From the NCBI RefSeq assembly GCF_964213995.1, contig NW_027590122.1, positions 930,001 through 994,000 of the forward strand: a DNA stretch of 64,000 nt, read 5' to 3'. The stretch is from Mustelus asterias. Taxonomy: Eukaryota. Made by a program: the position numbers and the translations under genes. The notes below the pieces were generated by a model. That model had not been told where the DNA came from. It searched no databases and worked only from the letters and a program-made list of their open reading frames with translations. Positions 16,862 through 58,210 of this stretch are shown here, in pieces (the first letter of the stretch is position 1; every line of letters starts with the position of its first letter).

Positions 16862-17536
16862 TCACTCGTGAACTCGCTGGTGTCTCAGCAGGTGGGATGA
16901 AAGACTGAATCTCTTCTCACACACAGAGCAGGTGAAGGGCCTCTCTCCAGTGTGAACTCGCTGGTGTGTCTGCAGGTGGGATGACTGAGTGAATCCCTTC
17001 TCACACTGAGAGCAGGTGAACGGTCTCTCCCCAGTGTGAATTCGCTGGTGTATCTGCAGGTGGGATGACCGAGTGAATCCCTTCCCACAGTGAGAGCAGG
17101 TGAATGGCCTCTCCCCTGTGTGAACTTGGTAGTGTGTCTGCATGTGGGCTGACTGAGTGAATCCCTTCCCACACTGAGGGCAGGTGAATGGCCTCTTCCC
17201 AGTATGAATGCGCTCATGTGCCCGCAGGTTGGATGAACAAGCGAATCCTTTCCCACACTGAGAGCAGATGAATGGCCTCTCCCCAGTGTGAGCTTGCTGG
17301 TGCCTCCACAGGCTGGATAAATGACTGAATCCCTCCCCACACTGAGAACATGTGAACGGCTTCTCCCCAGTGTGAACTCGCTGGTGTGTCTGCAGGTTGA
17401 ATGACTGAGTGAATCCCTTCCCACACTGAAAGCACGTGAATGGTCTCTCCCCAGTGTGGCTGCGCCGATGAGCTTCCAGCTCAGTTGGGTATCTGTATCT
17501 CTTCCCACAGTCCCCACATTTCCATGGTTTCTCCAT
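16862..17536 (-). CDS. C2H2 zinc-finger protein, 8 fingers, 224 aa, no effector domain
   Basis: MEKPWKC start in a CACCATGG context, 8 complete fingers, in-frame stop 13 codons upstream, splice acceptor TTTTACAG at 17888. Confidence 0.9.
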
Positions 17537-18357
17537 GGTGCAGGTGTCCTTGCCTCTGTCTTGGGTGGACAATCAGTTGAAGCCTCGTCGACACACAGAA
17601 CACGGGTACAGTCTCTACCCGCTGTGAATGGTGTGATATTTATTCAGGCTGTGTAACTGGTTAAAGCCCTTTAGTCCGTGCGCTGGAACACTCTCACTCG
17701 AGTGTGGCAGTGTGTTGGTGCTTTTCCAGTCACACTGATGTTTGAAATCTTTTCAAATCGACAGACTGGACAACCATTTCTCCTTCTAGATTCAAAGTCC
17801 GATGATATTCAGCTTCCAAGGAATATGACTCTGTCAGATCTAGACGTGACGTTTGAGATTTCGGCCTGTGATTCCTCTTTCAATATCCTGTAAAATGAGG
17901 TTACAAAAGTCATCAGTGTCAGGACAGGATAGAAATTCAGAGCAGGATTCTATTTAAAAATGAAAGTGGATGGGCGCTTGAAGGAAATATACTTTCAGGA
18001 GAATGGGGATATAGAGTGGGAATGGGACTGGAATGTTATACAGAGAGTCAGCATGGACTCGAGTTACCGAATGGATTCCTTCTGTGCTGTAATGACTTTA
18101 TGACTGGTAATGTATAACATCGCTGCAGCATTATATTACAATGCAAGAAATAATAATAAATGTATTTTATTACAGAAGCATAAAGAATGTATCTAATCTG
18201 GGTACCATATAATAACACTAGACATATCTCTGTCCTATATTAATTTACTGTCCCCTTAAATGTCAGCCATCTCCTGGGGAAAGCTGCCCTTTAATTGTGA
18301 ACATTAGGAAAAAGACCATCCTTTTAGACAGACAAATAAATGTGTCAAGTTGAGGGA

Positions 18358-18835
18358 GCAAAGGATGTTCACCAGGCTGATTCAGGGAATCACAGGACTG
18401 ATGTAGGAGGAGAGATTGACTCGGTTAGAATTGTTTTCGTTGGAGTTCAGATGAATGAGGGGGGAATCTCAAAGAGACTTATAAAATTCTACAGGTTGAG
18501 ACAGGATAGATGCAGGGAGGATGTTCCTGATGGAGTCCAGAACTGGGGGTCACAGTCTGAGGATTCAGGGTAGACCATTTAGGACGGAGGTGAGGAGACA
18601 TTTCTTCACCCAAAGAGTGGTGAGCCTGTGGAATTTATTACCACAGGAAGTAGTTGGTGCCAAAACATTGAATGTATTCAAGAGGCGGCTGGATAAAGCA
18701 CTCGGGGCGAATGGGATCACAGGTTATGGGGAAAAAGCAGGATTCGGCTACTCAGTTGGATGATCAGCCATGATTGTAATGAATGGCGGAGCAGGCTCGA
18801 AGGGCCAAATGGCCTCCTCCTGCTCCTATCTTCTA
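18358..18835 (+). mobile_element. CR1 3' fragment inside a ZNF intron
   Basis: ORF 18521..18763 (HFFTQRVVSLWN..FKRRLD) followed by the CR1 tail. Confidence 0.8.
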
Positions 18836-18849
18836 TATCAATGTCTTTA

Positions 18850-19920
18850 AGAGAGAGAGAAACCTGGGCCAACTTTTCCAGAGTCTGCAGCTTCCCTGGA
18901 TTCACTTCCTTTCCCTTCAGTTGCTGCAAGTCCCCAATTTCCCCCAGAATGAGAAAAGAATTGGAAAGGGGGAGAAAAGAAAGTGTTTTACTCACAGATG
19001 TTGGCCTCTTTTAGGTCAAAACAAAGGAACAAACTCAAGTTAAATCAGGACAAAGTAAAAGGGGCAGCTCCCCAAAAGGAGGGGGAACAGCCCGATCAGA
19101 AATCAAAGTACAAAGGAAAGAGCGAGATGTTGACCTCTTTTAAGGAAATAAGTGATAAATTAGTTATCCGCCAGAGTTCGATGTCATCTGATCGCTTGTT
19201 TGGAGAATAAAACATACTGAGGAACCTCGCTTCATCTGGGATATGACGCTGGCGTAACCCATGTCATCAAAATAACTCCCTTCCGACAGGAGGAAGTTTC
19301 AGTGCAGCTCAATCTGACTGTCACAAAGACCTGATTGGCTGGAGGACCAGAGTCCTTCCGGTCCTCCAACTCTTCCCATTGGTCAACACCCCAGCATGAA
19401 GGTCAGGAGGCGTCTACCCCGCACATGCGCAGTTTCCCCTCTCTCTTGGACATGCGCAATCCCGGGGCCGGGGGGAGGGGGAGATCACCGAGCGGCTTCT
19501 CGCTCTGGCCGGAGCCGTCAGCCGGTTGCGTGGAAACCTTGGCTCGATGTGGTGTAGGGGGAGGGGAACAATGGGTGGGGGCGGGGCTCCCGGGTCCGCG
19601 CGCCCGGGCCTGCGCACTGGAACACCATAACGTCATTGCGGAAGAGACTGATTTTTATTGGCTCATTCAGGCAGGCTCCATTGTGGACGTCACAATGCGG
19701 AAGCTCGATTGATTCAGATTCAGACTCAGTGAAACTTCCTCCTCTGGGCAACATCTGGGAGGAAATCAAATGTTTCCCCCTTTCCATTTATTTTCTCATT
19801 CTGGGGGAAATTGGGGACTTGCAGCAACTGAAGGGAAAGGAAGTGAATCCAGGGAGGCTGCAGACTCTGGAAAGATTGGCCCAGGTTTCTCTCTCTCTTA
19901 AAGATATTGACATCCTTTGC
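18850..19920. promoter_or_regulatory. Bidirectional ZNF promoter cassette 1, with inverted non-coding exon modules
   Basis: ATTGG boxes at 19334, 19378 and 19657; NRF1-like CATGCGCA; GC box GGGGCGGGG near 19578; GACGTCA plus GCGGAAG near 19686-19703. The same module lies on - at 18855-19006 and on + at 19731-19890, between divergent ZNF ORFs. Confidence 0.75.
19007..19119 (-). mobile_element. Tx1-clade LINE 3'UTR fragment
   Basis: Reverse complement matches the 3'UTR (49645-49756) of the Tx1-like ORF2 end at 49441-49632. Confidence 0.7.
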
Positions 19921-20127
19921 AGAGTTCCACATGAATTAGAATTGTCTGTACTGAATTTCTATCTTGTTTTGATAGTGATGACTTTTGTAAATTCTTTTTA
20001 CAGGATATTAGAAGGAGAGGATTTACTGATAGAAATGTCAAGATCTAACAGTCACTCAATTCATGGGAGCTGAATGTCATCGGTTTGAATCTGGAAGAAG
20101 AAACGTATAGCTGTTTGAATTGGGTGA

Positions 20128-20531: not shown

Positions 20532-20649
20532 TGAATTGGGTGAACCATTGGTGTGAACAGAAAAGCATCAAGGCCCGTGCAACCCGAGTGACGGTGTTCC
20601 AGTGCACGTATTGTGAAAACTGCAGGAGAGACAGAAAGACACACGGATC

Positions 20650-21516
20650 ATGGAAAAACCATGGAAATGTGAGGACTGTGAAAAGTCATTCCGTTCCCCA
20701 TCAGTGCTGGAAATTCATCGACGCAGTCACACCGGGGAGAGGCCATTCTCCTGCTCCAATTGTGGGAAAGGATTCACTCGGTTATCGATCTTGCGGACAC
20801 ACCAGCGAGTTCACACCGCGGAGAGGCCATTCACCTGCTCTCAGTGTGGGAAGGGATTCACTCAGTCATCGCACTTGCTGATACACCAGCGAGTTCACAA
20901 TGGAGAGAGGCCATTCACTTGCCCCATGTGTGAGAAGGGATTCAGCGATTCATCCACACTGCAGACACACCAGCGAGTTCACACCGGAGAGAGGCCGTTT
21001 CCCTGCTCTGTGTGTGGGAAGGGATTCAGTATCTCCGCCAACCTGCTGAGACACCAGCAACTTCATACTGGGGAGGCTTCCTTCACCTGTTTTGAGTGTG
21101 GTAAAGGATTCAGTGATTCGTCCAACCTGTTTTCACACCAGCGAACTCACACTGGGGAGAGGCCGTTCACCTGCTTACTGTGTGGAAAGGGATTTAGCCA
21201 GGCATCCAGCCTGCAGACACACCAGCGAGTCCACACCGGGGAGAGGCCGTTCACCTGCTCAGTGTGCGGCAAGGGATTCAGTGATTCATCCAACCTGATT
21301 TCACACCAGCGAGTTCACACGGGGGAGAGGCCATTTAACTGCTTTGTGTGTCAGAAGGGATTCAGTCGATTATCTAACCTGCTGACGCACCAGCGACTTC
21401 ACACTGGGGAGAGGCCGTTTGCCTGCAATGAATGTGGAAAGGGATTCACACGATCATCCCACCTGCTGAGACACCAGCAAGTTCATAAGCGATTACAAGC
21501 ATTGGATTCTGCTTAA
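20650..21516 (+). CDS. C2H2 zinc-finger protein, 10 fingers, 288 aa
   Basis: MEKPWKC start, 10 complete fingers, acceptor TTTTTACAG at 20003, family 3'UTR downstream. Confidence 0.9.
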
Positions 21517-36139: not shown

Positions 36140-36850
36140 CTTTAAGAGAAAGAGAAACCTGGGCCAACCTTTCCAGAGTCTGCACCCTCCCTGGAGTCAC
36201 TCCGTTTCCCTTCAGTTGCTGCAAGTCAAGGCAGGAATGAGCAGCTGAACAAGCTCATTGTCCACTTCCGCATTCAGACAATGGGCGAGCTCTGATTGGC
36301 TGGAGGACCAGAACATCCGTTCCTCCAACTTTCCATTGGCCAACACCTCAGCAGCAGGTCAAAAGGTTGGCTCGCCCCGCACATGCGCATCTTCCCCTCT
36401 CCCTTGGACATGCGCAGTCCCGGGCCGAGGGAGGGGGCGATCATGACGCGGCTTCTCGCTCTGGCCGGAGCCGTCAGCCGGTTGATTGGAAACCGTGGCT
36501 GGAAGAGGTGGAGGGGGAACAATGGGTGGGGGCGGGGCTCCCGGGTCCGCACGCCCGGGCCTGAGCACTGGAACCCGGAGACGTCATCGCGGAGCAGAAT
36601 GATTCCTATTGGCTGATTTAGGCAGAGCTCTCTTATGGACGTCACAATGCGGAAGTTGTCCAAACTCCCTCTTCTGGGCAACATCTGGGAGGAAATCAAT
36701 GTTTCCCCCTTTCCATTTCTTTTCTCATTCTGGGGGAAATTGGGGACTTGCAGCAACTGAAGGGAAAGGAAGTGAATCCAGGGAGGCTGCAGACTCTGGA
36801 AAGGTTACAGATGAAGACCGGATTCAGGAACAGGACTAGGCCCAGGTATA
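36140..36850. promoter_or_regulatory. Bidirectional ZNF promoter cassette 2
   Basis: Collinear with 19330-19890. Inverted exon module at 36155-36227 (-) and 36675-36803 (+). Confidence 0.75.
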
Positions 36851-45332: not shown

Positions 45333-46710
45333 AACACAATGATATTCAGGTTACAATAAATTGGCTAACTCCATCAGGTTTTGATATAATATTTGGTTTC
45401 AGTTTCCCAACTGCAAATCCTCCTCTTCTAAACCCTGTGAAATTGATTTAAAACAGAAAAAAGGAAGTGAGAGAGAACCCACAAAAACACAAAGGCAGTT
45501 TGTGAAATTGAGCTGAATGAATCTGGTCATTTGTGGGGCTGGCACTCGGAAAAAGTGATCATGAAAACTGCTGGATTGTCATAAAAACCCAGCGGGTTCA
45601 CTGATATCCTTCAGGGCAGGAAATCTGCCACACGGTCTGGACACAAGACTCTGGACACTGAGAGAGAAGATAGAGAGAAGTAGGAGAGGTCAGGGTGAAG
45701 GAGAGGGATTTTGTACATTGACAACTCAATTAGAACTTTGACAGAAAGTTTCCCAAACCCTCAACCTCCACCCACCTAGAAGGACCAGGGTAGCAACTAG
45801 ATGGGAACACCATCACCTTCAAGTTCCCCTCCAACTCACACACCACCCTGACTTGTCTGACGTCCAGTACTAAAAGAACAGAAATTTCTTTCATATAAAC
45901 ATTGGGAAGACTGAACCCATTGTCTTCAGTCCCCACTGCAAACTCCACTCCCTCGCCAGCAACTCTCTCCCTCTTCCTGGCAACTGTCTGAGGCTGAAGC
46001 AAACTGTTCACAACCATGGTAAAATATTTCACCCCAAGTTGAGCTTCCAGCCACATTGCCACATCATCATCAAGACCGCCTATTTCCACCTCAGTGCCAT
46101 TGATCAACTCTACTCCAGTCTCAGCTCCTTTGGAACTCTCATCCATTCCATTGTGACGTGAAACACAGGGGAATGGGGATACAGAGAGGGAATGGGACTG
46201 ACTGAATTGCTCCACAGAGAGTTGGCATGGATCTGAGTTGCCTATTCTATGTTGTAATGTTTCCATCACTGAAAATAGATAATGTTGATACACTGCTATA
46301 TATTTTAAGACAAGAAATAGGGAATCGTAAATAACATAGTATATACCATGTAACTACATTAAACATATCTCTCTCCCATACAAATTTACTGTTCATTAAA
46401 ATGTTAGCCCTCTCCTGAGAAAACTCCCCCTTGAATTATGAACATTGGGTAAGAGGCCATCCTATTAGCCAGATATATAAACATGTCAAAGTGAGGGAGC
46501 TAAAGGATGTCAATGTCTTGTGAGAGAAAGAAAAAGATACCTGGGCCTAGTCTTGCTCCTAATTCCGATGTTCGTCTATAACGTTTTCAGAGTCTGCAGT
46601 CTCCCTGGATTCACTTCCTTTCCCATCAGTTGCTGCAAGTCCCCAATTTCCCCCAGAATGAGAAAGGAAATGGAAAGGGGGAGACATTGATTTCCTCCCA
46701 GATGTTGCCC

Positions 46711-46795
46711 TCTTTTTAGGTCAAACCAAATAAACAAACTCAGATTAAGTCAGGCCAAAGTAAAGGGGGCAGCTCCCCAAAAGGAGGGGGAACAG
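46711..46795 (-). mobile_element. Tx1-clade LINE 3' end
   Basis: Matches 49672-49756 and 19007-19090. Confidence 0.7.
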
Positions 46796-47116
46796 TAAGT
46801 TTCACTCTGAACCTCATTGGCCAACTTCCGCATTGTGACGTCACAATGGAACCTCGCGTGAATTAGCCAATAAGAATAAGTCTGCTCCGCGGTGACGTCC
46901 TGTGGTTTCAGTGCGCAGGCCCGGGCGCGCGGACACGGGAGCCCCGCCCCCACCCATTCCCCTCCTCCTGCACCTCCTCCAGCCAAGGTTTCCAGGCAAC
47001 ATGCTGGCGGCTCCGGCCAGAGCGAGAAGCCGCTCGGTGATCTCCCCCGCCCCCCTCTCTCTACGGCGGCTGCGGCTCCAAAAAGAGATCGAGAGCGACC
47101 GCTGGCGGCAGCCGCA

Positions 47117-47350: not shown

Positions 47351-47554
47351 CTTCACCACAGACTCAAACTTCACCACAGACTCAAACTTCACACACAGAC
47401 TCAAACTTCACCACAGACTCAAACTTCACCACAGACTCCAACTTCACACACAGACTCAAACTTCACACACAGACTCAAACTTCACCACAGACTCAAACTT
47501 CACACACAGACTCAAACTTCACCACAGACTCAAACTTCACACACAGACTCAAAC
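47351..47554. repeat. Minisatellite with mixed 18/19-bp units, about 11 copies
   Basis: Direct repeats of CTTCAC(A)CACAGACTCAAA. Confidence 0.9.
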
Positions 47555-47914
47555 CTCCTCCTCTGGACAACATCTGTGAGGAAAACACTTTCTTTCCCCC
47601 CCCCCTGGGAAATACAGAGAGTTGTGGACTCTGGAACTGGAATTAGAGCCAAATATACTGAGGGGGGAATGTTTGTGATTTTGTGGAACCTGTTTTTATT
47701 GTCTGAGCGTTTTAAAGTTTAATTTATCCTGTCTATTCAAATACTGTTTCTTAATGCATGATTCAGTGATGTTAATTTTAGATTAATTTTTGAAGTAAAA
47801 ATTTTTTAAAATGAAACATTGTCTTTGTTTATTCCATTGGGATTTGTGGGAATTTGTTTATTATAAGGTGACCATGAGGATCGTAACAACATTGATATGT
47901 CTGGTGTTGGTGCA

Positions 47915-49440: not shown

Positions 49441-49756
49441 CCCAGGCAGCGGGCGATCGAGGGGGCCGTCCATCCTGACTGTCTGCCCCTCTACTGCGGC
49501 TACATTCACAGCCAGGTGTCCCTGGAGAGGGAGCATGCGGTGTCCACGGGCACGGTTGATGCCTTCCGTGCCCGCTGGGCACCGCAGGGGTTGGGGTGCG
49601 TTATCGACCCTGATAATCACATTTTAATTTGATGTTTTTAAGTTTCCTTTGTACTTTGATTTTTGTTCGGGCTGTTCCCCCTCCTTTTGGGGAGCTGCCC
49701 CTTTTACTTTGTCCTGACTTAATTTGAGTTTGTTTATTCGGTTTGACCTAAAAAGA
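49441..49756 (+). mobile_element. Tx1-clade (L1 group) LINE 3' end
   Basis: Reads RQRAIEGAVHPDCLPLYCGYIHSQVSLEREHAVSTGTVDAFRARWAPQGLGCVIDPDNHILI*, which resembles vertebrate Tx1 ORF2 C-termini (recalled, not searched). A T-rich 3'UTR ends in AAAAAGA. Confidence 0.65.
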
Positions 49757-52214
49757 GGCCAAGAGTTTATGGGAGTCCATCCATTATCTTTTCACTAAAC
49801 AAGCCTCCAATTTTCCTTTAAGCTCTCAAACTGTGGACTCCTCAGTCTAAACATGGGCTTCACTGCATTCTTGCTGAGGCATTTAAATGTTGGAAACACC
49901 CCTGGTTTCCAACGGTCCTCTAGGCTTCTAGTCCCACAGCTGGTTCACAGCTCCTGGTCCCACAACTGGTGGCTTCCAAGCTGACTGCAGACTGTCCGCT
50001 GAAACCAGGTCATTGATTGGAAAGGACTCAAAGGTTCCGGGGAAAAGGCAGGAGAATGGGATTGAGATTTATCAGCCATGATCGAATGGCACAGCAGATT
50101 CGATGGGCCGAATAGCCTAATTCTGCTCCTATATCTTATGGTCTAATTCTAACCAAGACTCCACCCTGAATCACATATCCCCATGGTAACAGAGACCAGG
50201 TGGAATATCTGACAGATATTTAGCTTCAAAACTAAACCCTTTTTCCTGAGGTCTGCATGAAGAATTAACCTAACAAAAACAGTACAATAATCGTCAGACC
50301 CAATGTCTCCAGCTAAAAGATCCAGCTGACCTTTTACAGTTCTTACCTCTCGAGTTTTGACTTCTTAAACCAACATGGGCCATGCTTTGTGACTGCGAAT
50401 TCCCTGAGGGTGTTTTCATCAGATTCTCAATCCAGGTTTTCCATTTTTTAAAAGCAATTCTTGCAACTAATTCATATTTCTAAAACATAGGAATTATAAA
50501 ATTAGATTTTTGTAACAAAAACAGGAAGAAATGGAAATGTATCACCTTCAAAATATCCCATTTAGAATATTACAATATACAACATGCTGTATATCTTAAC
50601 AACAGCCATGATCTTATTGAATGGTGGAGCAGGCTCAAAGGGCCAAATGGCCTCCTCCTGTTCCTAAATCCACTGTTTTCCTATGTTGATCTATCTTATA
50701 ACCTGCAATAGACATAATAATCCCTCCATTGTCCACTTGACATTCACAAGTCCAGCTTGATAACAGCACACTGCTGGGTTCCATGTCCAGGAATTCAGTC
50801 CACTGAAGATGGAAATTACTGCTTGCAGTCTTTTCTGACGGTTTTCTTCTTACAATAATTATAGTCCAAAGTTCCTCCTGCAAAAGGAGAGTCTTCATTG
50901 CTGTTCATTTGTGAATTTTCAAGTTCTATTTTGAAAACAGTCTGTACAGAGTTCACATTTTGAAATTTATTTTCTTCCATGTTTGTAGTTCCTCCATTGT
51001 TTAAATCCAGAGAGAATATTCCACTCAATTCCACATTGAAACTGTCTTCTTCTTGCTCAGTTATAGCTGATTCCTTTATTGTCCAGGACAATATATTCAC
51101 AATATCTTTAAAACAGAAATTAAACATTCCCATTTGATTTCAGACAGTAACATATCCCGTTAGTTTGTTCTTTATTGTCAATGTCAGTCTCGGGTTGTTC
51201 CCCTTGGAGCAAAGGAGATTGAGGGGAGATTTGATAGAGGTGGACAAGATTCTGACAGGTTTAGATAAGGTGGACAAAGAAAAGCTGTTCCCATTAGCTG
51301 AAGGGACAAGGACGAGGGGGGCACAGATTTCTTGTTTTGGGTCAGAGATGCAAGGGGGGGGGGGGGGGGAGGGAGATGTGAGGAAGAATATTCTGATGCA
51401 GCGAATGGTAATGACCTGAAACTCGCTGCCTACGAGGGTGGAGCAAGTGGAGACAATAAACAATTAAAAAGGAAATTGGATGGGCATTTGGGATGTTCCA
51501 AACAGAACGAAGAACAAAGAAAATTTTGTTTTCTTTAAAGAAAACAAAAAAAAGAACAAAGAAAATCCATCAAGACATCATTTGACTGAGTTTGGCAGAA
51601 AGGGACCTACACAGGGTTGGAGTCGGTGGGGTTTGGCGGGGGGATCTCTCCACCGGTTGGGGATATACCAGGTACAGACGATGATGGCTGTGGTTGTTGG
51701 AGGTCAGTCATCACTGCAAGGGTCACTGCAGGGTTCATCTAAAACTCTGCTGGCCATGTTTAAACTCACATTAAGTGTTATTCCACTATCACCCTTGTGC
51801 ACGATGATCCACCCAGTAAAGCAACAACTTAACATTAAAATTCTCATCCTTGGTTTCAAATCACTCCATGACCTTGCCTGTCCCAATATCTATAATCTCC
51901 TATCAGCCCCACAACCCTCAATATATTACACGACTCTAATTCTGGTCTTTAGTTTGTCCCTGACCTTGCTTCACCATTGCAAGCTCTACCTTCAGTTGCT
52001 TAGGCTCCAACCTCTGGAATACCATCCCTACACGTCTCCAACTCTCCACCTCGCTTTACTCCTTTAACACACCCCTTAAAATCTACCACTTTGACCAAAC
52101 TTTTGGTCATCTAACCAAATATCTTCTTTGTGGCTCAATGTCATACTTTATTTTACAATGCTCCTTGGATGTTTTATTACTTTCAGGCGCTATATAAATA
52201 TATTTTGTTGTTCC

Positions 52215-57639: not shown

Positions 57640-58210
57640 GAGAGAGAGACCTGGGGCAACCTTTGCAGAGTCGGCACATTCCCTGGATTCACTTCCTTTC
57701 CCTTCAGTTGCTGCAAGTCCCCAATTTCCCCCAGAATGAGAAAAGAAATGGAAAGGGGGTTGAAGAGAAAGTGATTTACTCACAGATATTAGCGACAGGA
57801 GGAAGTTTGAGTCTGTCTGAAGATCAATCTTCATTCACACAAAGCCCGCGCTCTGATTGGCTGGAAGACCAGAGTCCTTCCAGTCCTCCAACTCTTCCCA
57901 TTGGTCAACACCTCAGCAAGATGATCAGAGGGTGGGTTCTCCCCTGCACACGGGGCGGGGCTCCCGGGTCCGCGCGCCCGGGCCTGGAAGGTGGAGACAT
58001 CAACACGGAGCAGAGTGATTCCTATTGGCTGATTCAGGCAGGGTTCCATTGTAACGTCACAATGCGGAAGTTGTCCAATGAACTTCAGAGTGAAACTTCC
58101 TCCTCTGGGCAACATCTGTGAGTAAATCAATGTTTCCCCCTTTCCATTTCTTTTCTCATTCTGGGGGGAATTGGGGACTTGCAGCAACTGAAGGGAATGA
58201 AGTGAATTTG
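57640..58210. promoter_or_regulatory. ZNF promoter cassette 4 (internally deleted core)
   Basis: Inverted exon modules at 57650-57810 (-) and 58090-58207 (+). The CCAAT boxes, GC box and AACGTCACAATGCGGAAG are retained. Confidence 0.7.

Follow-up and report, generated by a model that had tools for sequence, protein, structure and literature searches.

A LINE of the Tx1 clade inserts with single-base precision, in many separate events, at a hotspot in the 5' module of the C2H2 zinc-finger (ZNF) genes of Mustelus asterias, where it makes 14-bp target duplications; elsewhere in the genome it uses a short target word, and the word varies with the lineage of the element. The window, the stretch of 64,000 nucleotides analysed here (contig NW_027590122.1), is a C2H2 zinc-finger gene cluster within a genome of 3.7 Gb.

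The element is confirmed as a Tx1L-related LINE. Its ORF2 is open over 1,297 amino acids and carries an AP-type endonuclease (PF03372) and a reverse transcriptase (RT, PF00078), the best named relative being Xenopus laevis Tx1L (ORF2 YTX2_XENLA, P0004; 48% over the whole ORF2). The Tx1 placement originally predicted was borne out when a full-length RT was put in a phylogeny built from 28 of 105 hits, with no L1 row: it falls in a 100/100 clade with P0004 (Tx1L), P0002, P0005 and P0006, and the nearest RT is a stingray record. Upstream of ORF2 lies ORF1, with open frames of about 620-760 amino acids and a CxxCxxxxHxxxxC motif; the ORF1 part of an older copy gave no Pfam match. The young lineage is intact, since 13 of 20 ORF1-bearing loci, chosen from the 40 best matches, keep a stop-free ORF2 frame of 1,302-1,307 codons. 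The copies bear the marks of TPRT, namely a fixed 3' end, variable 5' truncation and target duplications, the latter in 26 of 84 junctions, with the remainder blunt or altered. One old Tx1 copy (L129, 2381-4422) is interrupted by an LTR-retrotransposon-like gag/pol fragment.

The features of the window are collected in Table 1. All four junctions of the original prediction were found where it had placed them: AAAAGA followed by GGCCAACATC at 19007/19006 and AAAAAGA followed by GGGCAACATC at 46711/46710 (both on the minus strand), AAAAGA followed by GGTCAACATC at 19136/19135 (minus strand), and a copy running to 49756 and followed by GGCCAA (plus strand). The filled modules at 19006 and 46710 do lie on opposite sides of the core; their subtypes differ as well, and so do the tails, both in length (115 versus 87 nt) and in haplotype. 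Descent of both copies from one insertion was checked, and they are separate insertions. Their proposed independence thus stands in that sense, with the qualification that each event was later multiplied by duplication. Indeed, the 19006, 46710 and 49757 copies each represent one event later duplicated, because the composites recur at other loci: that of 19006 is common to 23 near-full-length matches among 37, that of 46710 recurs in loci L141 and L161, and the 49757 copy and its flank are identical in 11 of 30 loci. Empty sites had been announced near 19746, 36676, 58107 and 57790; the first three are real, the last is degenerate and lies at 57792, and another at 47565 had been overlooked. 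Also overlooked were a shift of two bases, a second hotspot, the fact that 19136–19283 is chimeric and the inflation of counts that cassette duplication brings.

Table 1. Features of the window related to the element and its target module
Feature	Coordinates	Strand	Remarks
C2H2 zinc-finger ORF	16862..17572	-	downstream of filled module
Downstream part of ZNF module	18835..18990	-	89% to 19746-19913
Target word and 3' copy of the 14-bp duplication (CCAACATCTGTGAG)	18991..19004	-	GTGAG-type ZNF module
3' tail of Tx1L-related LINE, 115 nt	19005..19119	-	ends GACCTAAAAGAGG
5' target copy, 9 nt (TCAACATCT)	19125..19133	-	
Element tail, 12 nt (CCTTAAAAGAGG)	19134..19145	-	'19136 junction'
Captured 3' trailer of pre-tRNA-Glu(CTC)	19146..19218	-	about 90% match
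Insert, 65 nt	19219..19283	-	no source beyond module composites among 37 matches
Upstream part of interrupted module	19284..19400	-	ends CTTCCTCCTGTCG
Bidirectional promoter-like core	19330..19745	.	83-87% to 36292-36806 and 46825-47055
Empty target site	19748..19761	+	GGGAG-type module
C2H2 zinc-finger ORF	20617..21516	+	downstream of empty module
Empty target site	36678..36691	+	
Element tail, 87 nt	46709..46795	-	module of GGGAG type, missing some upstream bases; target not duplicated
Empty target site	47567..47580	+	other side of 46.8-kb core
Element tail, 317 nt	49442..49758	+	at off-module CCAA word in duplicated segment
Empty, degenerate target site	57779..57792	-	
Empty target site	58109..58122	+	

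Read on the minus strand, the composite at 18995-19290 passes from the upstream part of the module through the 65-nt insert, a 73-nt trailer of the tRNA-Glu(CTC) gene (contig C8), the 12-nt tail, the 9-nt target copy, 5 spare bases and the 115-nt tail to the target. The trailer match starts at the 3' end of the tRNA on G000:C8. The 'similar junction' at 19136 is correctly positioned and yet marks no third module site, as it sits in the 5' copy of the 19006 target. The whole composite arose either by two insertions in series or by a single one with template jumps, and the 9-nt target copy would be either a short duplication or a read-through flank copied in a template jump. Comparable pre-tRNA chimeras occupy the same module site in L142, L158 and L218, and L083 shows a serial insertion with a full 14-bp duplication. 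An Rfam search of window positions 18700-20000 gave no match, and tRNA hits returned inside the tail by a relaxed tRNA scan were judged false.

The module lies between the bidirectional promoter-like core and the zinc-finger ORF, and the element inserts in the sense of the gene. A promoter function of the core is predicted from its sequence; it contains words that we take to be CCAAT-, CRE- and ETS-like. In two related-species runs, presumed to be RNA, one contig each connects 19833 or 19872 with 20002-20003, where an AG precedes the next exon; this would place the target site of the GGGAG subtype inside exon 1. The module of about 1,400 copies is likely a non-coding first exon. In the GTGAG subtype, the duplicated 14-mer includes a putative donor-like GTGAG, and the spacing of the target site to the core varies between module subtypes. 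Just upstream of the empty site at 47567, a module word of 19-21 nt is tandemly expanded (47351-47557).

The element itself ends in …AAAAGAGG; it targets the word NCAA and mostly duplicates 14-15 bp. Of the 26 duplications found, three of them from twins of one locus, 19 begin at the base that follows GG, 5 begin a base before that and 2 at other places; the preceding target bases vary, are not GG and are mostly pyrimidines. GG is consequently part of the element, and GGNCAA was ruled out as a target, since it joins two element bases to four target bases. The preference first proposed, for a site just downstream of ZNF transcription starts or more generally for GGNCAA, was right as to both a ZNF-module hotspot and a general short word, and wrong as to the word itself. 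About 100 nt before the element 3' end, a G+C-rich stem-loop (49660-49700 in the window) forms the most stable fold of the tail and is a candidate recognition signal for the RT.

Exact tails number 1,818 genome-wide (1,443 five-A, 235 TT and 140 four-A), and their 3' flanks are not random across the genome. Positions +2 to +4 of the first 30 five-A junctions are C in 28, A in 29 and A in 26 cases, and later positions are flat; here and below, junction samples are first-listed matches rather than random ones. Off-module flanks display no preference beyond 3-4 bases, and off-module sites neither an excess of CpG islands (4/86 near, 4/86 far) nor a general preference for promoters. From this use of a 3-4-base word with flat flanks genome-wide, it follows that most copies lie outside ZNF genes. 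Short tails also occur in tandem, as in L160 (G000:C71:14.94 Mb), with 18 copies of about 255 nt, and at G000:C89:2431516-2433811, with 15 tail junctions spaced by about 132 nt; such arrays suggest repeated template jumps or local amplification.

Within the ZNF module, one site stands out. NCAACATCTG follows 134 of the 1,678 junctions with five-A or TT tails and 122 of the 140 with four-A tails, so that 256 exact-tail junctions abut it. The word alone would predict 0.018 (~0.02), as the genome has about 1.4e8 CAA words and 1,402 of them are module sites. A looser pattern allowing very short tails brings the main module site to 394 junctions. The multiplicity of events was assessed on a breakpoint sample of 63 loci, from which 19 long copies were set aside and re-fetched duplicates and three off-cluster loci left out: conservative merging of its 49 short junctions leaves 23 breakpoint classes, whose tails range from 10 to 1,291 nt. 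At least 12 of these classes have, by eye, module sequence or a duplication right at the 5' junction, and 14-bp duplications are present at 12 of the 14 module junctions checked, which were chosen by eye. Raw counts are inflated by cassette duplication, as the short junctions include twin classes of 5 and 7, and most four-A copies in the sample are duplicated twins. For ten long copies, comparing flank with element identity did not cleanly tell duplication from separate insertion. As a control, the NCAA word NCAACTGAAGGG, located 76 nt downstream in the module, holds 1 junction genome-wide versus 394 at the main site, with 95 versus 130 copies of the two in 110 fetched module loci. Two CCAAT-box words hold 0 and 0 junctions genome-wide, and insertions there could have been removed by purifying selection. 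A second small family, ending AAACGAAAAGAAA and about 1.3 kb long in L130, occupies the main module site in 5 of its 6 exact matches (L277-L281, G000:C23).

The word follows the lineage. Among unselected off-module copies, the +1 base is C for 30 of 30 TT tails versus 5 of 29 five-A tails, and other tail haplotypes mostly go with GCAA or ACAA; in modules, 41 of 45 TT copies occupy C-type sites (hand count within the first 100 listed). The young tail haplotype is followed by TCT in 165 of 180 cases, some of them tandem repeats of one event, and in modules this lineage goes to a second site, some 45 bp upstream of the main one. At least 78 of 227 TCT junctions fall at that second site, including ones at the element's own copy of it. 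Together, both module sites account for a raw share of 334/1,818 (18%), inflated by duplication as are the shares by class, which reach at least 78/227 for TCT junctions, about a quarter for TT tails and 122/140 for four-A tails. In the available passages of Kojima's work, a family counts as target-specific when more than 20% of its flanks belong to one sequence type (PMC4494074).

The four lineage words are the first bases of module sites. The linkage between word and lineage is imperfect, one haplotype being found with ACAA, GCAA, CCAA and TCT. The young lineage's own 5' leader begins with its new word, and young full-length copies start with a diverged copy of the second-site exon piece and a tRNA-Val-like remnant, so labelled by resemblance and below Rfam's threshold; the tRNA-Val-like head is present in 4 of 5 older copies with the 5' end in view. 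Full-length young copies may stand head to tail (L230, L234, L235, L236, L244), the 3' flank then being the leader of the next element, and two near-full-length young copies (L241, L242; G000:C21) sit at a TCTC word in an ATCCA-rich satellite. The endonucleases of the old and young lineages differ at 23 of 250 positions, three of which fall within or beside the stretch that aligns with the hairpin loop of Tx1L. L228 and L233 combine a young endonuclease with a GCAA flank and look recombinant, so they offer no clean test of mechanism. An argument from 'identical endonuclease, different word' was ruled out, since the own end of L238 is TCTC and L228 and L233 look mosaic.

It is somewhat probable that the site is chosen by pairing of read-through element RNA with the nicked target strand, as in R1/R2. 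Master copies would be transcribed from a ZNF promoter, with RNA reading through into the module. RNAs ending 3-4 nt past GAGG could then prime at any matching word, whereas RNAs carrying more of the flank would base-pair over the 14 nt that separate the two nicks, and paralogous modules would capture them; a lineage with a changed 3' flank would therefore acquire a new word and a new hotspot. RNA pairing is favoured because it accounts for the two modes, the single-base precision, the lineage-bound word and the site switch. Tails joined to module or leader sequence on contigs outside the clusters (L062, L091, L070) fit it, as does L251, an off-cluster tail and flank with poly(A) and a duplication, which could instead be a template jump and not read-through. 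The candidate terminal hairpin counts against it, being weak (between -2.4 and -6.3 kcal/mol with the four words observed) and missing from 2 of 3 centroid folds. The fuller proposal is put forward tentatively: a vertebrate LINE, with the 3' flank of its RNA dictating where it inserts, would home to the first exon of a 1,400-copy gene family, borrow its promoter and be re-targeted through a captured exon leader behind the tail, with no new endonuclease specificity needed.

RNA pairing is weakened by the 23 changes in the endonuclease and by the specificity of the Tx1L endonuclease, reported to be sequence-specific alone in the available part of its description (PMC1950540). Recognition of module DNA by the endonuclease or another part of ORF2, in the way that Tx1L recognises Tx1D, with amino-acid changes moving the word from NCAA to TCT, is accordingly a rival, though a rather unlikely one, and none of the copies examined cleanly separates it from RNA pairing. 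Besides the precedent of this closest characterised relative and the lineage differences within the domain, it draws support from the constant 14-15 bp of the duplications and the pyrimidines that mostly precede them. However, CATCTG is not matched even in part at off-module sites, the +1 base changes with minor variants of the tail, and both words would merely happen to be sites in one module. Tethering is less likely than RNA pairing, and improbable overall. Here a host factor at ZNF promoters would hold the particle at a set distance, as for Ty3 and TRE5, and the short word would fix the base. This would explain why both hotspots are within about 50 bp, just downstream of the promoter core, why lineages with different words remain in the module and why the AAACGAAAAGAAA family shares the site; it sits poorly with the near absence of insertions at the matching word 76 nt away, the lack of a general promoter preference and the differing core-to-site spacing of the module subtypes. 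A few chance insertions multiplied by cassette duplication or conversion, with no targeting, would be very improbable as an explanation. Duplicated composites are real, as the 23 matches of the 19006 composite, the classes of 5 and 7 and the four-A twins attest, but pure duplication is contradicted by the 23 breakpoint classes with differing tail haplotypes, the serial insertions at one site in L083, the intact young copies with different flanks and the unused neighbouring NCAA word.

Among LINEs known to be site-specific, the safe sites are RNA genes, repeats or transposons; with a protein-coding gene family, a new class would join these targets. Set against about 1,400 module sites, the 394 junctions suggest that around a quarter of the family's 5' ends have been altered. 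If the RNA 3' flank sets the site, the element would be a naturally re-programmable vertebrate retrotransposon with intact copies, which would be relevant to RNA-based gene insertion.

The element is a Tx1-clade member that would work like target-specific Tx1 and R1/R2 elements, and its target class and lineage-wise change of site were not found in the literature searched. That search, made on partial texts, returned nothing on Tx1 targeting of zinc-finger genes or on lineage-wise site change; Repbase, subscription journals and supplements, which may name the family, were outside it. With Xenopus laevis Tx1L the element shares an AP-type endonuclease and RT and an apparent target specificity. 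The target of Tx1L is the DNA transposon Tx1D, according to the passages available (PMC4494074), whereas the present element uses ZNF modules and short words; unlike Tx1L, it enters the 5' module of a protein-coding family, is found mainly off-target, at a short word, and changed its site from one lineage to another. Keno, Kibi, Koshi, Tx1-Mar and Tx1-9_AMi likewise prefer multicopy sequence, and weak preference and small-RNA chimeras are also known; their targets in the same passages are snRNA genes, microsatellites, satellites, 5S and transposons, with no protein-coding gene among them (PMC4494074). In L051 (1863-2546; G000:C1:112.24 Mb), two U2 snRNA pieces are each followed by an element tail of about 400 nt, and these U2-Tx1 chimeras resemble crocodilian SINEU or Keno. 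For Tx1-mobilised SINEU, co-transcription with the target is discussed in those passages (PMC4494074). R2Ol, R1Bm and SART1Bm, as far as the accessible parts of the reports go, combine transcription from the target locus with a 3' flank, or bases resembling the target, that anneal to the primer (PMC6530143, PMC7265360), and R2Ol insertion rose from 12% to 96% with a longer 3' target flank (PMC6530143). In these three elements the site is fixed by a specific endonuclease and annealing makes insertion more efficient, whereas in the present element annealing is proposed to set the site itself.
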